A stretch of DNA of 64,000 nt, from assembly GCA_038062955.1 (NCBI GenBank), contig JBBTWE010000001.1, positions 554,271-618,270 on the forward strand. Direction: 5' to 3'. A model generated the notes under the pieces. That model was given only the letters and a program-made list of their open reading frames with translations. It did no database searches and was not told where the DNA came from. The translations under genes were made by a program, and so were the position numbers. The stretch comes from Patescibacteria group bacterium (GTDB taxonomy: Bacteria > Patescibacteriota > Minisyncoccia > Phycocordibacterales > BOKC01). Shown here one piece after another: positions 54,849 to 60,006 of the stretch. Each line of letters begins with the position of its first letter. Position 1 is the stretch's first letter.

Positions 54849-56114
54849 CTAAAATTCAAGCATTTGAAAAACTCTAGGAATTATATTTACAATCGGACAA
54901 TCACTAAAAGAAACTCCATTATTTATAGACACTTTTGGTTTCTTCGGACCAATAGTAGAGTAAGAAACCTCACAAATGTCTGACAGACAGCTATCTGTTT
55001 CTGCATCGCTCCACAAAAACTCCTCATCGCCTATTGGATTTGTAATTGTTGCCTGATAAGTAACCGTTTGGCCAGGATAAAATACAACTTCATCCACGTC
55101 ACAAGAAACTTCTGGATCAGGTATCGGCGGAATCACTTTGAATTTAACTTCTGTTGTTCGTACTATCTCGCTCAAACTAGAAACTCCTCCAATCGTAAAT
55201 TCATATTGGCCGGTCGAAGCTTCTGGTTCAACTTCTATTGTAACCGAACTAGCGCAATTTGGATTAAGCCAGCTTATACTGCACGGATTGTTTGAAACAA
55301 TAGTAATAGTTACGGGAGAACCAGCTCCTGAAACCACTGAAAGAGTTATAGATTCTTGTGTCATACCGGCAAGCAATTCTCTATCAACGCTAATATTCCC
55401 AGTATTTCCCTGCTCTATCTCTAACTCATAATCTGGACTGGTGTTTGAAAGATCATAATCAAAATCTTCATCTTCCGGAGGACCGAACGAAACATTGTAA
55501 AAATTAATCCAGCCCACAACATCACTCCCCCAAGCACTACCTACCAGTTTTTTTATTTCTTCATCGTAAGTCACTCCACCTGTTCCACTAAACTGCGGAG
55601 AAGGATAATTGGTCTTATTAGACAAACTTATCCAACCATCCCAACCATCAGTGCGAGATGTCATAGAACTACAATTGCCACTTGCTGTGCCAGCACAAGC
55701 CCTAACCCAACCTTCAACTTTACCTTCTTCAGATCCATTAAACTTAATCAGAGCATTACTACCTTGATCAGTGGAAGGAAATCCCGACAACCCATCAAAT
55801 TTTATCCAACCAATATTGTCAGACCATGCTGATCCAGACATTAAGCCGGTTTTATTGTTTACTTTGACTGAATAATCTACCGCCCCGCAATTTTCCGAGC
55901 CTTCTGTTGGGCAATTGTTGAAACTTACCCATCCGATATTGTCAGACCATGCTTGCCCATAAAGAGTTGTTTCGCTAGGTGCGGCTTCAACTTGTTGTTC
56001 TAAATTAAAAATTGGCAAAAAACTAATTACTGTAAGTAAAGTAAAAGTGATCAAAAGAAAAAGAGGTGGATTTAAAAATCTGCCTTTTGTGATTCTCACA
56101 TGGAGCTTAGACAT
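54849..56114 (-). CDS. Secreted repeat protein (AWSDNIGW motif repeats)
   Basis: Signal anchor. Three copies of G-x-AWS-D-N-I-G-W-[VI]-x-F and a related WDGWISL. Cys-rich C-terminal half. Confidence 0.5.
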   Translation of the reverse strand: MSKLHVRITKGRFLNPPLFLLITFTLLTVISFLPIFNLEQQVEAAPSETTLYGQAWSDNIGWVSFNNCPTEGSENCGAVDYSVKVNNKTGLMSGSAWSDNIGWIKFDGLSGFPSTDQGSNALIKFNGSEEGKVEGWVRACAGTASGNCSSMTSRTDGWDGWISLSNKTNYPSPQFSGTGGVTYDEEIKKLVGSAWGSDVVGWINFYNVSFGPPEDEDFDYDLSNTSPDYELEIEQGNTGNISVDRELLAGMTQESITLSVVSGAGSPVTITIVSNNPCSISWLNPNCASSVTIEVEPEASTGQYEFTIGGVSSLSEIVRTTEVKFKVIPPIPDPEVSCDVDEVVFYPGQTVTYQATITNPIGDEEFLWSDAETDSCLSDICEVSYSTIGPKKPKVSINNGVSFSDCPIVNIIPRVFQMLEF

Positions 56115-56187
56115 TTTATAATTATAAAAGAATAGAAGAAAAAACCCTAATGGGGTTTATTAACATTAAACAAATCTTAAGGTATGA

Positions 56188-56304
56188 AAGAATCGATCGC
56201 TACTCGATCATTCCCCTTGTTGGATAAATTTTCGTTTTTCAAACTCAAATTTATGCTCAACAAGGCTTCGATTCTCTAAACATGCGATTAAGATCGCATG
56301 TTTC
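56188..56304 (-). other. tRNA-linked composite structured element, copy 1 (90-nt element plus hairpin) downstream of tRNA-Pro
   Basis: Minus-strand: tRNA-Pro, then GAACGAAGTGA, then hairpin AAACATGCGAT-ctta-ATCGCATGTTT, then 90-nt element closed by GAGAATCGA/TCGATTCTT. 62-nt core identical to the copy at 57689-57778. Flanking stems differ by compensatory changes. Confidence 0.6.
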
Positions 56305-56318
56305 GCTCTCACTTCGTT

Positions 56319-56388
56319 CGGGGCGCCGAGAATCGAACTCGGGCCACATGATCCCAAATCATGTATACTACCGCTATACTACGCCCCG
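56319..56388 (-). tRNA. tRNA-Pro (anticodon UGG)
   Basis: Manual cloverleaf: acceptor CGGGGCG/CGCCCCG, anticodon loop UUUGGGA, T-arm CCGAG-UUCGAUU-CUCGG. Confidence 0.7.
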
Positions 56389-56479
56389 TTTTTAAACAAA
56401 CAAAACTTATACTTAATGCGACATCGAAATAAATGTTATGTTATGCTAGCATATTCCTGTTCGGTAATGAAATTCCAAA

Positions 56480-56797
56480 ATGAAAATTGATAGGAAGTTT
56501 CAAAGAACAGTTGAAGATTTTAAATGCACACATTGTGGAGCTGAAATTAAAGGAAATGGCTACACAAATCATTGTGAGAACTGTCTCTGGAGTAAACATG
56601 TAGACAAAAACCCAGGCGATAGGTCTTCAAATTGCAATGGCGAAATGCCACCATTGAGTGTATTCCAAAGAAAAGGAAACTATTTTTTGGTTCATAAATG
56701 CACGAAATGTGGTTTAGAGAAAAACAATAAAGTGTCCGGCAAAGATGATTTTGAAAAGGTGCTTCATCTTTCAAGTGGTATAGAAAAGAAAAAGTAA
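56480..56797 (+). CDS. RNHCP-domain zinc-ribbon protein
   Basis: CTHCG...NHCENC...CTKCG motifs. Confidence 0.6.
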   Translation: MKIDRKFQRTVEDFKCTHCGAEIKGNGYTNHCENCLWSKHVDKNPGDRSSNCNGEMPPLSVFQRKGNYFLVHKCTKCGLEKNNKVSGKDDFEKVLHLSSGIEKKK

Positions 56798-56807
56798 AAA
56801 ATGTAAA

Positions 56808-56881
56808 GCGGGATTAGTTAAATGGTATAACTCCAGTTTTCCAAACTGGTGTCGGGAGTTCGATTCTCCCATCCCGCACCA
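56808..56881 (+). tRNA. tRNA-Gly (anticodon UCC), CCA encoded
   Basis: GCGGGAT acceptor, anticodon stem CCAGU / loop UUUCCAA, T-arm GGGAG-UUCGAUU-CUCCC, 3' ATCCCGCACCA. Confidence 0.8.
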
Positions 56882-56896
56882 ATAGAGCGAAGCTGG

Positions 56897-57026
56897 GCGG
56901 GATAGAACGTGCCTGCGCACGTTCGTGGGAGAATCGAAAGGGTTTTCGATGTTTCTGAAAAGCTTTGTTTTGAGGAAACCGAAAACCACCTGACTACGTG
57001 ATAGCCGATTCTCTCACCCCGCACCA
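56897..57026 (+). other. tRNA-like composite element, copy 3, downstream of tRNA-Gly(UCC)
   Basis: Begins GCGGGATAG (same as the tRNA 5' end). Then 8-bp hairpin GAACGTGC-ctgc-GCACGTTC. Then long element closed by GAGAATCG...CGATTCTC. Ends CCCCGCACCA (copy of the tRNA 3' end). Confidence 0.5.
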
Positions 57027-57042
57027 ATTTAGTATCAGTTCC

Positions 57043-57438
57043 CTACTCCGGCACCACATCTTCAATAATTTTTACTCGAGCAACTTTCTTAATCGGGTCA
57101 AAAAGAATTGAAATGACTAAGAAATTCCAATCCGAATCTTCTTTGTGTTTGCTCCATAAGTAAACCTGGATTGTTTTAGAAATTCGACGAAGTTTCCCCG
57201 CATTTACTTTTTCTTCCGGACGAGGACGATTTATCAAAGACAAAGATTCTAATTGTTTTAAATCCACCGTTTCTGTTTTTACCTCAACAAAACATATTTG
57301 TTTGTCTTTTTCAGCAACTATATCGATTTCGCCGCATTTTTTAGAATAATTCCTATCTAAAATTTTATATCCTTTTTCTATAAGGATTTTGCAGGCTATA
57401 TCCTCACCTTTATTCCCTGTTTTCTTTTTCTCAAACAT
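57043..57438 (-). CDS. yraN: YraN family (UPF0102) endonuclease-like protein
   Basis: GEIDIVA...FVEVK core. Confidence 0.7.
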   Translation of the reverse strand: MFEKKKTGNKGEDIACKILIEKGYKILDRNYSKKCGEIDIVAEKDKQICFVEVKTETVDLKQLESLSLINRPRPEEKVNAGKLRRISKTIQVYLWSKHKEDSDWNFLVISILFDPIKKVARVKIIEDVVPE

Positions 57439-57676
57439 TAATTAGAAATAAAAAAACAATTTTTTAGACCTTTTTAAACAGACTAAATGACCAGAATAAC
57501 CTTAAGGGACTGCTTTTTGTCTTTAAATACACATTTCCACAGACTTATCCACAGTTCCTAAACAAACTTTTTAGATTAAATTTTTCAAAGAGGGCTTATT
57601 TTATAAACTTTCCAAAAAAATTATTTTTAATTTATACCTTAATATTGCCTAATCAATATTTTTAAGGACATTTTTT

Positions 57677-57803
57677 GGTGCGGGTGCCGGGAATCGACCG
57701 TTACTCGGTCAGTCCCCTTGTTGGATAAATTTTCGTTTTTCAAACTCAAATTTATGCTCAACAAGGCTTCGATTCCCTGAAAAAGTGCTTCCGAGCACTT
57801 TTT
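57677..57803 (-). other. tRNA-linked composite structured element, copy 2, downstream of tRNA-Gly(GCC)
   Basis: Minus-strand: tRNA-Gly, then GAACGAAGTGA, then hairpin AAAAGTGCTCGGAAGCACTTTT, then 90-nt element (GGGAATCGA...TCGATTCCC), then GGCACCCGCACCA. The last 22 of 24 nt match the tRNA-Gly(GCC) 3' end GGTTCGATTCCCGGTACCCGCAC. Confidence 0.6.
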
Positions 57804-57835
57804 CTACCCTTTCTAATTTCACTTCGTTCAATTTG

Positions 57836-57906
57836 TGCGGGTACCGGGAATCGAACCCGGGTCTCGTCCTTGGCAAGGACGTGTCATACCATTAAACTAT
57901 ACCCGC
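57836..57906 (-). tRNA. tRNA-Gly (anticodon GCC)
   Basis: GCGGGTA acceptor, anticodon stem CGUCC / loop UUGCCAA, T-arm CCGGG-UUCGAUU-CCCGG. Confidence 0.8.
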
Positions 57907-58029
57907 TTTTTTTTAAGTGCTACTCGAAAAGAATAGCAAAGATTTGCGTTTGTTTCTAGTTAGAAATTTACTAGTAAATAAAAAGAGCCTAAAGCTAGAA
58001 CTTAGGGCCCTGTGATTTGTATACGCTTC

Positions 58030-58295
58030 TCAAGAACAAGTTTTGGGACAGTTATGTGTCTCACCAATCTGAAACTTTGCGCCGCAGAGATTGCAGATCT
58101 GTAGTGGAAGCATATGTCCTGTCATGAATATTGCACCACAACAATCGCAGCCATAAGCGGTGGCATCATCCCACAAGTCACGGCTCCCACACTTCATGCA
58201 CCTACCAGTAAAGTGTCCTGTGGGCAAATTGTTAGGATTATTAGTCATCTGAAGCTGGGCCAGTTCATTCACGTCTGTGATTGGTGTCTTCATTA
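58030..58295 (-). CDS. Small Cys-rich (10 Cys) zinc-ribbon-like protein, GC-rich
   Basis: GAGAGG RBS then ATG (MKTPITDV...). CxxC...CxCC...CxxC...CxxxC pattern. GC about 50% against AT-rich flanks. Confidence 0.45.
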
Positions 58296-58396
58296 TTTCC
58301 TCTCTTTTGAAAGAACAGAGATATTGGTAGTTTTGAGAGACACACCAATAATCTATTTTCATACTCGCATACAAACACCAAGAGGTCAAAATTTTG

Positions 58397-58468
58397 TGCG
58401 CCCGGCAGGACTCGAACCCGCAATAACGGTTCCGAAGACCGTTGTGATATCCATTTCACCACAGGCGC
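58397..58468 (-). tRNA. tRNA-Arg (anticodon UCG; anticodon call tentative)
   Basis: Acceptor GCGCCUG/CGGGCGC (one G-U), D-arm GUGA...UCAC, anticodon loop CUUCGGA, T-arm GCGGG-UUCGAGU-CCUGC. Confidence 0.6.
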
Positions 58469-58539
58469 AGTACATAATGTGAATTTAAGATTATAATGAA
58501 AAATTAGTAAAAAGACAAAGAATGTAATAAAATTCAGCT

Positions 58540-60006
58540 ATGAAATTTGAAATTCCAAAAGAAATTTTGAGCATCTCTCAAAAAATAAAAGAAGCTGGAT
58601 TTGAGGCTTATTTAGTTGGCGGATGTGTCAGAGATTTAATTTTAGGCAAAAAGCCTAAGGATTGGGATTTTGCAACTAATGCTAAACCGGAAGATATAGT
58701 TTTACTTTTTACGAAGACTTTTTATGAGAACGAATACGGCACGGTTGGAATAGTAAACGAGGGTGTTTCAGATGAAACCTTAAAAATCGTCGAAATAACT
58801 CCTTTCAGAACAGAATCAGAATATTCAGATTCAAGACGACCCGACAAAGTAAGTTTTGGAGCAACACTTGAAGAAGATCTGAAAAGACGTGACTTTACAA
58901 TCAATGCAATAGCCCTAGATGCTGATAAAGGACATTTATACGATCCACATAAAGGACAAGAAGATATAAAGGACAGAATTATAAAAACTGTTGGAGATCC
59001 TAGAGTAAGATTTGGAGAAGACGGTCTACGAATATTACGAGCAATTAGGTTTAATGCCGAGCTTGGTTTCATGATTAACGAGGAGACAAGTCAAGCAATA
59101 AAAGCCCGCGCTTCCCTACTTCAAAATATATCTAAAGAGAGAATAAGGGATGAATTTATTAAGATCATCATGTCTGATCGTCCGATGGAAAGTATTATTT
59201 TAAGCCAAGAATTAGGAATCTTAAAGATTATAATCCCGGATTTAGAATCGACAATTGGAATAGAACAGAACCAAGCCCACTCTTTCGATGTTTGGCTTCA
59301 TCTACTGAAGTCCTTAAATCATGCGGTCAAGAAAAAAATGTCTCTAGATTTACGTTTGGCGGCCTTATTCCACGATATTTCTAAGCCGGAAACCAGAAGA
59401 TGGTCACCCGAAAAGAAAGATTGGACATTCTATGGCCACGACGTAGTCGGCGCCAAAAGAGCCGTCAAAATCCTTAAAGATTTGAGGTTTTCAAACGATT
59501 TAATAGAAAAAGTAGAGAAGTTAGTCAGATGGCATATGTTTTTCTCTGATACTGAACAAATTACTCTTTCGGCCGTTAGAAGGCTCATTGTTAACGTTGG
59601 AAAAGAAAACATTTGGGATCTAATGAACGTGAGAATTTGCGATAGGATAGGCACCGGTAGGCCCAAAGAAAGCCCTTACAGGCTAAGAAAGTACCGTTCT
59701 ATGATTGACGAAGTGTTAACAGACCCAATATCCGTAGGAATGTTAAAAGTGGATGGTGGTAAAGTTATACGTGTAACCAAACTGTCTCCAGGACCAAAAA
59801 TTGGTTATATTCTTCATGCTCTACTAGAAGAAGTACTGGAAGATCCGAGTTTAAACACCGAAGAATACTTAGAAACCAAAGCACTTAAATTAGCTGAATT
59901 GCCTGAAAACGAATTAAAAATTCTAGGAGAAAAGGCCAAAGAAAAGAAAGAATTGGAAACGGAAAAGAAAATAACCGAGATTCGTGATAAGCATTGGGTT
60001 AAGTAG
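58540..60006 (+). CDS. cca: CCA tRNA nucleotidyltransferase (PolyA-pol head plus HD domain)
   Basis: GGCVRDLILGKKPKDWDFAT and RDFTINA motifs. C-terminal HD-like region. Confidence 0.8.
   Translation: MKFEIPKEILSISQKIKEAGFEAYLVGGCVRDLILGKKPKDWDFATNAKPEDIVLLFTKTFYENEYGTVGIVNEGVSDETLKIVEITPFRTESEYSDSRRPDKVSFGATLEEDLKRRDFTINAIALDADKGHLYDPHKGQEDIKDRIIKTVGDPRVRFGEDGLRILRAIRFNAELGFMINEETSQAIKARASLLQNISKERIRDEFIKIIMSDRPMESIILSQELGILKIIIPDLESTIGIEQNQAHSFDVWLHLLKSLNHAVKKKMSLDLRLAALFHDISKPETRRWSPEKKDWTFYGHDVVGAKRAVKILKDLRFSNDLIEKVEKLVRWHMFFSDTEQITLSAVRRLIVNVGKENIWDLMNVRICDRIGTGRPKESPYRLRKYRSMIDEVLTDPISVGMLKVDGGKVIRVTKLSPGPKIGYILHALLEEVLEDPSLNTEEYLETKALKLAELPENELKILGEKAKEKKELETEKKITEIRDKHWVK

Follow-up and report, generated by a model that had tools for sequence, protein, structure and literature searches.

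Structured tails behind tRNA genes of Patescibacteria form an apparently new covarying family with features of T-loop-targeting insertion elements

When integrases insert DNA into transfer RNA (tRNA) and transfer-messenger RNA (tmRNA) genes, the hallmark is a direct repeat that reaches from the T-loop to the 3' end of the gene. Other short elements spread through bacterial genomes without carrying genes of their own, such as the enterobacterial repetitive intergenic consensus (ERIC, also called intergenic repeat unit, IRU), the Correia and Rickettsia palindromic elements, the repetitive extragenic palindromic sequences and bacterial interspersed mosaic elements (REP/BIME) and the miniature inverted-repeat transposable elements (MITEs), and for ERIC compensatory base changes have been reported. 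A third kind of system is recognised as a folded single strand, as in the attC sites of integrons and the attP(+) hairpin of CTXphi, which is used by XerCD and whose integrated right end reads antisite, loop, site and chromosomal flank. Here we describe a family of structured tails behind tRNA genes which shares features with all three, starting from a 64-kb stretch of the genome of a Patescibacteria group bacterium (contig JBBTWE010000001.1, positions 554,271 to 618,270; called the window, with positions counted from its first base). We give about an even chance to the reading that these tails are short, non-coding and non-autonomous insertion elements, spread across the Candidate Phyla Radiation (CPR), with the T-loop region of tRNA and tmRNA genes as their target. 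The family itself appears to be new, as it matches no described RNA family or mobile element in Rfam or in full-text literature searches.

The window contains four tRNA genes and one tmRNA, placed by ARAGORN and Rfam, which agreed on all of them. Three of the tRNA genes carry downstream, on the strand of the gene, a composite tail of 130–160 bases, namely tRNA-Pro(UGG) (56318–56388, minus strand), tRNA-Gly(UCC) with an encoded CCA (56808–56881, plus strand) and tRNA-Gly(GCC) without one (57835–57906, minus strand; 69.5 bits with the Rfam tRNA model), the last having the T-loop TTCGATT at 57849–57855. No tail is present behind tRNA-Arg(UCG) (58396–58468, minus strand, T-loop TTCGAGT) or behind the tmRNA (1731–2125, T-loop TTCGATT), which is followed by a terminator only. 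Each tail shows the same order of a C(GAA)G mini-hairpin motif, a first hairpin (hairpin 1) with a stem of 8–11 bp whose sequence is different at each of the three loci, an antisense strand, a long hairpin, a junction, a short hairpin and a strand matching the antisense strand. The part of about 90 nt from the antisense to the matching strand, here called the core, forms a three-way junction of a closing helix, the long hairpin and the short hairpin with its GUA loop. A pattern derived from the three cores has three matches in the 64 kb, which are exactly the three tails, against 0.00 expected, and the tails fold with z-scores of −5.0 to −5.8 relative to shuffled sequences. The composite tails noticed by a first-pass annotation of the bare sequence are thus all real.

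In the Gly-GCC tail, read on the minus strand, the mini-hairpin motif GAACGAAGTGA lies 6 nt 3' of the tRNA (57819–57829) and is followed by hairpin 1 (GAAAAAGTGCT-cgga-AGCACTTTTTC, 11 bp, 57779–57804), by the 5' closing strand GGGAATCGAA (57768–57777) and by the long hairpin with an internal UGAG/CGAA loop of the tandem G.A type (57716–57766), the sequence of which is the same in the Pro tail. The junction GGACU and the short hairpin GACCG-AGUAA-CGGUC (57696–57715) then lead into the copy of the tRNA 3' part, TCGATTCCCGGCACCCGCACCA (57676–57697), whose first bases are the 3' closing strand. The Pro tail (56181–56317, minus strand) consists of the motif ACGAAGTGA (56309–56317), which belongs to the same GAACGAAGTGA form as that of Gly-GCC, hairpin 1 (56278–56303), the 5' closing strand AGAGAATCGAA (56267–56277), the long hairpin (56215–56265), the junction GGAAU (56210–56214), the short hairpin GATCG-AGTAG-CGATC (56195–56209) and the 3' closing strand GATTCTT (56188–56194), beyond which only a decayed remnant without a real copy of the acceptor strand is left. 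The Gly-UCC tail (56882–57026, plus strand) has a core of a second subtype and reads motif GAGCGAAGCTG (56885–56895), a strand GCGGGAT antisense to the acceptor 3' strand (56897–56903), hairpin 1 (56905–56924), 5' closing strand GGGAGAATCGAA (56927–56938), long hairpin (56941–56987), junction (56988–56991), short hairpin (56992–57006) and tRNA 3'-part copy CGATTCTCTCACCCCGCACCA (57006–57026).

The closing helices of the three window cores are formed by GAGAATCGA, GGGAATCGA and GGGAGAATCG pairing with TCGATTCT, TCGATTCCC and CGATTCTCTC, respectively, and the 5' closing strands GGGAATCGAA, AGAGAATCGAA and GGGAGAATCGAA each run antisense to the T-loop of their own tRNA and to the start of its T-stem 3' strand. 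In both Gly tails the 3' strand (TCGATTCCC and its counterpart) runs on as a near-copy of the T-stem 3' strand, the acceptor 3' strand and the (C)CA, so that the copy of the tRNA's own 3' end proposed in the first-pass annotation holds for Gly-GCC and Gly-UCC with 18/20 identical positions each. It does not hold for Pro, where only TCGATTCT is common to tail and tRNA and the remainder (10/20) is at the level of non-cognate tRNAs. The Pro and Gly-GCC cores share an identical stretch of 63 nt, one more than had been noted before, while their short hairpins differ by compensatory changes (GAUCG/CGAUC versus GACCG/CGGUC). With the three window copies alone the covariation is thin.

For a broader view the window-derived pattern was searched in the GTDB species genomes and gave 64 loci, about 45 of them in CPR/Patescibacteria (Saccharibacteria, Paceibacteria/Parcubacteria, Kaiserbacteria, Lloydbacteria and Zambryskibacteria) and the other 19 being chance or coding matches. 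A covariance model built from 47 copies (cut-off E < 1e-5) identified 66 copies in the collected sequences, about 19 of which do not fit the pattern. The CPR affiliation assumed in the first-pass annotation was thus right. The elements are about 100–190 nt long and non-coding, without any open reading frame (ORF). In the model-fitted alignment, whose counts lean to the structure of the model as it was fitted to it, 96.6% of the cells are standard pairs compared to 73.7% after shuffling and 33–59% when the partners are slid against each other, and double-sided changes occur in 16 of the 19 pairs; none of 500 shuffles reached the observed score. RNAalifold on a plain MAFFT alignment recovered the same helices with 12/19 pairs covarying. 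The short hairpin (helix 3) alone is paired in 97% of its cells and shows double changes at five of its six pairs. The compensatory changes taken earlier as a sign of selection on structure have therefore become much stronger with the 66 copies.

The sense strand is predicted to be more stable than the antisense strand in 57/63 copies and has twice as many G-U pairs, from which it follows that the selected structure belongs to the tRNA-sense strand, either as RNA or as single-stranded DNA. Several unpaired bases are conserved from Saccharibacteria to Parcubacteria, namely GAA(R) after the 5' closing strand and (U)GUACUGA between the two hairpins, and the GUA loop, closed by a covarying pair, and the tandem G.A motif of the long hairpin are likewise conserved across lineages. 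Hairpin 1 adjoins the 5' side of the closing helix, where a scripted search that tolerated one mismatch detected a stem of 6 bp or more in 62/65 copies, commonly as GCAAG...CUUGCG with a CUGC loop. Rfam 15 matched only tRNA and tmRNA, in an E-value scan of window positions 55500–59000 and in a gathering-threshold scan of 15 related loci, and no description of the tail element was found in the full-text literature searches; a paper on group I introns in Patescibacteria tRNA genes concerns introns of the anticodon loop and not the tail element (PMC13011429).

Three ideas about the conserved bases were rejected. A hammerhead or other small ribozyme was considered because of the CUGA, but the GAAA strand and the helix order are unfit as judged by eye, and there is no Rfam match. 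An anticodon-like reading of the short-hairpin loop CUGUAAG fails as the flanking loop positions covary as a pair (UA in 48 copies, CG in 10), and a pseudoknot between the GUA loop and the UAC of GUACUGA is backed by a single compensatory case, the window Gly-UCC tail with its GUG and CAC, and is inconsistent across the family. Four matches from a metagenome scan were discarded as chance, since the covariance model confirmed none of them. The family is broader than counted, as a divergent tail behind tRNA-Pro (T-loop TTCAAAT) in L077 (3199–3358) was missed by the covariance model even with the filters off. This tail has the GCGAAGC motif, hairpin 1 and a T-loop copy, together with two antisense strands, one against the acceptor 3' strand and one against the T-loop region, but its core is unlike the family consensus.

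The mini-hairpin motif after the tRNA, in the form GCGAAGC or ACGAAGT, is also present behind tRNAs of the distant CPR loci L057, L031, L012 and L077, and at the motif the window Gly-GCC tail and the Saccharibacteria locus L057 have 18 consecutive bases in common (ATTGAACGAAGTGAAATT). The oligonucleotide d(GCGAAGC) is an unusually stable DNA mini-hairpin.

The link of the family to tRNA genes is very tight. A tRNA or tmRNA gene lies on the same strand within 400 nt upstream of 59 of the 66 copies, within 106 nt in 54, and most of the other seven are located at contig ends. The hosts comprise at least 19 tRNA anticodon species and tmRNA; the tmRNA genes of L045 (confirmed by Rfam) and L046 both have tails. 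Altogether 53 of the 94 tRNA and tmRNA genes in the fetched loci carry a tail, in a sample biased by the fact that each locus was picked for holding at least one. The closing helix has no fixed sequence but changes with the T-loop and T-stem of the gene in front of it, and does so even for unusual T-loops such as TTCGAAT, TTCAAGT, TTCGACC, TTCAAAT, TTCAATT and TTCGAAC. Thus in L004 TTCGAATCCCGG pairs with GGGATTCGAA...GTTCGAATCCCGGC and in L010 TTCAAGTCCTC pairs with GAGGACTTGAA...TCAAGTCCTCTT, and the same tracking is seen for TTCGACCCCCAC (L005), TTCAAATCCCAC (L021), TTCAATTCCCGC (L006) and TTCGAACCCTTG (L031). In L065 the closing helix even follows a lineage-specific compensatory change in the T-stem of tRNA-Gly(GCC) from CCCGG to CTCGG.

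The 3' part of the cognate tRNA is matched at 18 or more of 20 positions in 22/55 tails, compared to a mean of 10.4 for non-cognate tRNAs, and the length of the direct repeat ranges from about 8 nt in shortened forms to at least 45 nt in L057, where it spans a terminator-like hairpin; in L012 the repeat of 25 nt enters the trailer. About 40% of the tails possess an extra strand before hairpin 1 that is antisense to the acceptor 3' strand, and this strand complements the gene including its trailer and not the mature CCA end (L010, L064, L037). Among 55 tails both this antisense strand and the downstream acceptor copy are present in 8, only the antisense strand in 14, only the copy in 17 and neither in 16, so that statistically neither feature depends on the other. 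For the same reason the idea of a tRNA-like acceptor stem under selection was rejected. In 24 tails the downstream copy matches at five or fewer of eight positions, and among them the antisense strand is kept at 8/8 in eight and at 7/8 in three. The partner that is kept therefore appears to be the upstream, tRNA-completing copy, which fits this upstream copy being part of the element, and the downstream 3' copy seems to decay freely while core, hairpin 1 and antisense strands are kept.

A sole member of the family, in L055 (1742–1960), has no detectable tRNA upstream. It follows an ORF of 191 amino acids, judged methyltransferase-like from its sequence alone without a domain search, and is preceded by a D-arm-looking fragment GCTCGGTAGAAC, possibly the remains of a lost tRNA gene.

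To see how the tails come and go, contigs of close relatives were fetched via YraN, whose gene is situated between two of the tails (83–85% protein identity). In L065 tails are present at Gly-GCC, Pro and Gly-UCC, all of one core subtype unlike those of the window, and its Gly-GCC hairpin 1 is nearly identical to hairpin 1 of the window Gly-UCC tail. L069 has a tail at Pro only. Its tRNA-Gly(GCC) is directly followed by AAAAAGTGTCCTTAAAAATATCGATTAGGCAATATTA, the flank that stands after the 3' copy in the window and in L065, and it therefore represents a clean empty site, from which the filled alleles differ by the insert and one copy of the repeat. The Gly-UCC site of L069 is likewise empty, and none of four more distant Parcubacteria that keep this gene order has a tail at Gly-GCC. 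The comparison of orthologous tRNA loci recommended by the first-pass annotation has thus yielded the empty sites it looked for. Two tandem tails are located behind Pro in L076, and tandem arrays with different subtypes occur in L049 and L076. Cores behind different tRNAs of one genome have a similarity of 0.72, with several pairs at 0.9 or above, compared to 0.67 for the same isoacceptor in different genomes (p = 0.03) and 0.66 for different tRNAs in different genomes, the same-isoacceptor pairs being no more alike. This likeness within genomes and the lack of an isoacceptor effect show that cores do not stay with one tRNA over time.

The order of CCA-adding enzyme, tRNA-Arg(UCG), tRNA-Gly(GCC), a box-rich spacer, YraN and tRNA-Pro is kept across Parcubacteria, including L065, L069 and L076–L079, with the identity of YraN going down to 44–51%; in the window the CCA-adding enzyme (with HD domain) is encoded at 58540–60006 on the plus strand. 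The segment of tRNA-Pro, the RNHCP gene and tRNA-Gly(UCC) (window 56188–57030) is inverted relative to L065 (4000–5800) and L069 (3400–4300), and in L065 it is bounded by two outward-pointing tails, which are candidate inverted repeats for a rearrangement. A crossover inside the tails was considered but is unsupported, as the two window tails show no clear exchange of their 3' ends.

The favoured reading as insertion elements builds on what the sequences show. The insert sits between two copies of the T-loop-to-3'-end segment of its gene, the upstream one completing a working tRNA; the antisense strand pairs with the tRNA-like segment in the sense-strand fold and closes the three-way junction; and the tRNA loci of one genome exchange cores, each closing helix nevertheless fitting the tRNA at its own locus. 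Filled and empty alleles, a direct repeat of variable length that starts in the T-loop, the use of tmRNA genes, an intact upstream gene, the decay of the downstream copy, tandem arrays and subtype turnover are, at the DNA level, the signature of elements integrating into tRNA genes with a crossover in the T-loop. Strand-specific covariation, conserved junction bases and target-tracking antisense strands mean in addition that selection sees a folded single strand. The mechanism of movement and the function we infer as follows. The element would enter or leave by site- or structure-specific recombination at the T-loop via an enzyme encoded elsewhere, and the fold would be what the recombination machinery recognises, possibly with the folded single strand rebuilding a duplex copy of the target, as in attP(+) of CTXphi or attC of integrons. 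It would carry a replacement for the 3' part of the tRNA, so that the upstream 3' part is element-borne as in classical tRNA-integrating islands, its single-strand fold being under selection, and cores may move from locus to locus through gene conversion, with the T-loop sequences that the loci share as its boundaries. Integration of such an element would give the order that is observed: the tRNA comes first, followed in many copies by a terminator-like hairpin and in some by the antisense-to-acceptor strand, then come hairpin 1, the antisense-to-T-loop strand and the core, and the T-loop copy leads into the chromosomal 3' part that was displaced.

How do the tails compare with the described systems? 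Like tRNA- and tmRNA-integrating islands and prophages they are flanked by a repeat reaching from the T-loop to the 3' end or beyond, leave the gene intact, also use tmRNA, exist as filled and empty alleles among relatives and vary in repeat length between elements, although in the window the direct repeat is found at Gly-GCC and Gly-UCC and not at Pro. Unlike those islands they are only 100–190 nt long without an integrase or any gene, have a covarying single-strand fold inside, hold strands antisense to their target and serve about 20 tRNAs with one core family. With the short palindromic repeats named above and MITEs they have in common that they are non-coding, multi-copy, smaller than 300 nt, hairpin-forming and patchy among relatives, such repeats being often co-transcribed with neighbour genes, but the tails have a strict target (the 3' flank of tRNA or tmRNA genes), a strict orientation and a three-way junction in place of a simple hairpin. 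The constant terminal inverted repeats and the fixed-length target-site duplication of MITEs are both missing, as the closing helix changes with the local T-loop and T-stem and the repeat measures from about 8 to at least 45 nt. Of the possibilities raised in the first-pass annotation, a site-specific MITE-like element comes closest to our reading, whereas its version as a tRNA-derived element similar to a short interspersed nuclear element (SINE) or MITE is not supported as far as the derivation from a tRNA goes, as explained below.

Integron attC sites and attP(+) of CTXphi share with the tails a conserved structure of variable sequence and a strand-specific fold, and the order of antisense strand, core, T-loop copy and tRNA 3' remainder resembles that of the CTXphi right end. 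The 'loop' of the tails is a conserved junction, though, they are about 150 nt long and neither cassette nor phage, no cognate recombinase was identified, and neither R''/R' boxes (GTTRRRY) of attC nor XerC/XerD arms were seen on inspection of the alignment. These likenesses are best regarded as analogies and not as memberships. The tails further recall the primer-binding sites of retroviruses and long terminal repeat (LTR) elements in complementing the 3'-terminal 18–25 nt of the tRNA (acceptor and T-stem 3' strands and part of the T-loop), but they differ in that the complementarity enters the trailer and not the added CCA, no reverse transcriptase is present and the strand is broken by hairpin 1. 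A primer-binding site for mature tRNA was rejected on the ground that the complementarity continues into the gene trailer.

Several observations weigh against an insertion element. No recombinase, transposase or reverse transcriptase could be linked to the family; the Pfam matches within about 12 kb of the tails include no integrase, transposase or reverse transcriptase, in agreement with the earlier remark that no integrase is nearby; two patterns had 0 matches each in 2.9 million viral contigs, which means no sign of a phage-borne attP; and no free or circular form was found. Deletion between the direct repeats would produce empty sites just as well, so that the filled and empty alleles fit gain and loss alike. 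Serving about 20 different tRNAs needs many co-evolved lineages or another way of target copying, and junction and loop bases conserved at phylum-level distance in sub-megabase, deletion-biased genomes also fit a host function.

In the strongest competing explanation, possible but in our view the less probable one, the tail is a functional tRNA-linked RNA, made by read-through from the tRNA gene and acting in cis. It may be a switch or quality-control device, in which the antisense strands capture the T-loop-to-3'-end segment of the tRNA and the tail's own 3' copy competes, or a stable RNA, whose end may or may not be tRNA-like, displaying the three-way junction to a protein. No strong terminator stands before the core in the three window tails or in the short forms L012, L040 and L007. 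The window tails are therefore probably co-transcribed with their tRNAs, and even a selfish element should then give an RNA product. When tRNA and tail are folded as one transcript, the structure of minimum energy has swapped domains: the antisense strands of the tail take up the 3' half of the tRNA, and the 3' copy in the tail pairs with the 5' acceptor strand of the tRNA. Two mutually exclusive folds therefore exist. The strand-specific fold with G-U pairs, the very strong covariation, the unpaired GUACUGA, GUA loop and tandem G.A conserved from Saccharibacteria to Parcubacteria, the location of the tails always on the strand of the tRNA and the antisense acceptor strand, which still complements the tRNA where the downstream copy has decayed, all agree with such an RNA. 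It is disfavoured by a terminator-like hairpin with a T-run between tRNA and core in about 27/45 relatives (counted by eye, a scripted terminator scan being too crude to confirm the number), by the dispensability of the tails locus by locus and their absence from many tRNAs of the same genome, by the repeat that runs into the non-functional trailer or terminator in L012 and L057, a signature at the DNA level, and by a complete acceptor-like stem in only 8/55 tails. A minority of tails (window Gly-UCC, L037, L076) can stack such a stem on a T-stem-like helix and ends in 3' (N)CA or CCA, similar to the tRNA-like domain of tmRNA, YrlA, viral tRNA-like structures and mascRNA. Unlike in those RNAs the T-loop bases are paired and form no elbow, no Rfam family of the tRNA clan matches and the stems copy the neighbouring tRNA; with the T-loop bases buried in a helix, a tRNA-style recognition is doubtful. 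The idea of a tRNA-linked RNA processed by RNase P/Z is weakened by the rarity of acceptor-like stems, the terminator-like hairpins and the dispensability.

Much less likely are scars of integrase-bearing islands or prophages, meaning a fused attL/attR remnant left after deletion of the interior, as had also been considered. The direct repeat from the T-loop to the 3' end, the use of tmRNA, the upstream copy that restores the tRNA and the empty sites are what such scars would leave. But 66 independent deletions would not converge on one covarying 90-nt fold, cores are common to different tRNAs in one genome, the viral contigs gave no match, and there is no full-length element, the sole tRNA-less core (L055) adjoining the methyltransferase-like ORF and not an integrase.

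Very improbable is an origin as degenerate tandem tRNA duplicates, in which a pseudo-tRNA had its D and anticodon arms collapsed to a hairpin and suffered an insertion in the T-loop, even if the segments follow a tRNA-like order of acceptor-like 5' strand, hairpin, T-stem-like strand, T-loop and 3' strand where they are complete (window Gly-UCC, L037, L076). Positions are informative where a G-U pair or a mismatch interrupts the T-stem of the tRNA; at 8 of 13 such positions the 5' closing strand is the Watson–Crick complement of the tRNA 3' strand, and at 1 it equals the tRNA 5' strand. Moreover, nothing in a tRNA corresponds to the seven bases that are antisense to the T-loop, homologous cores are found behind about 20 different tRNAs and tmRNA, and no tail was called by the Rfam tRNA model or ARAGORN. 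That the tails are ordinary terminators lacking conservation elsewhere, or a chance similarity of three intergenic regions, is already refuted by the three pattern matches against zero expected and the 66 covarying relatives. Some hairpins are indeed terminator-like, the Pro short hairpin being flagged by the scan, but the region holds no more terminator-like sites than its shuffled versions do.

The insertion-element and RNA-function readings are not mutually exclusive. More tentatively, the tails might be either a class of minimal mobile elements of about 150 nt that home by a self-made duplex or guide with an enzyme provided in trans, or a phylum-wide class of cis-acting RNAs that toggle the tRNA 3' half between the cloverleaf and a sequestered rod. 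In the mobile version a fully paired, three-armed single strand would carry the T-loop-to-3'-end segment together with its antisense and home into the T-loop of the matching gene.

The approximately 12 kb around the tails are of housekeeping character with PGK, TIM, type IV pilus genes, the RNHCP-domain protein, the CCA-adding enzyme, an exonuclease III-like protein and an NYN-domain protein. Between the YraN gene and the Gly-GCC tail lies an AT-rich, non-coding region (57440–57680) with a perfect DnaA box TTATCCACA at 57545–57553 and a second box-like sequence ATTTCCACA just upstream. The cumulative GC skew has its minimum near 57–58 kb, the gene orientation switches there, and a box cluster (CTGTGGATAAGTCTGTGGA...) is found at the same place in L065, L069 and L076–L079. 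From these signals the region is a probable replication origin, or at least a DnaA-controlled region. Other repeats adjoin tRNA genes and tails in L039 (5880–6080 and 6290–6380) and L063 (1370–1440): L039 has a tandem direct repeat of about 100 nt behind tRNA-Glu, and both loci share an element of the form ...CTTAGTAGA...ACGAAGTG...GATTCGTGACCACAA. These may represent a second kind of tRNA-flank element. The tag peptide predicted for the window tmRNA is unusually long (ANNLVAKAKSIVSPYFGNEKLAFVYA).

In summary, CPR/Patescibacteria genomes are tiny and deletion-prone, and yet the tails sit on 53 of the 94 tRNA and tmRNA genes of loci selected for tails. If they are mobile, they would be among the smallest target-specific insertion elements known and would use an undescribed way of recognising or copying their target, and if they are an RNA device, they would add a phylum-wide, undescribed layer of tRNA biology. 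On the practical side, the duplicated tRNA 3' ends made by the tails can confuse predictors of att sites and genomic islands. As repeats, the tails are also able to drive deletions and possibly rearrangements, such as the tRNA segment of the window that is inverted relative to L065 and L069. Either version, if true, would mean a new principle of tRNA-gene parasitism or control in ultra-small genomes.

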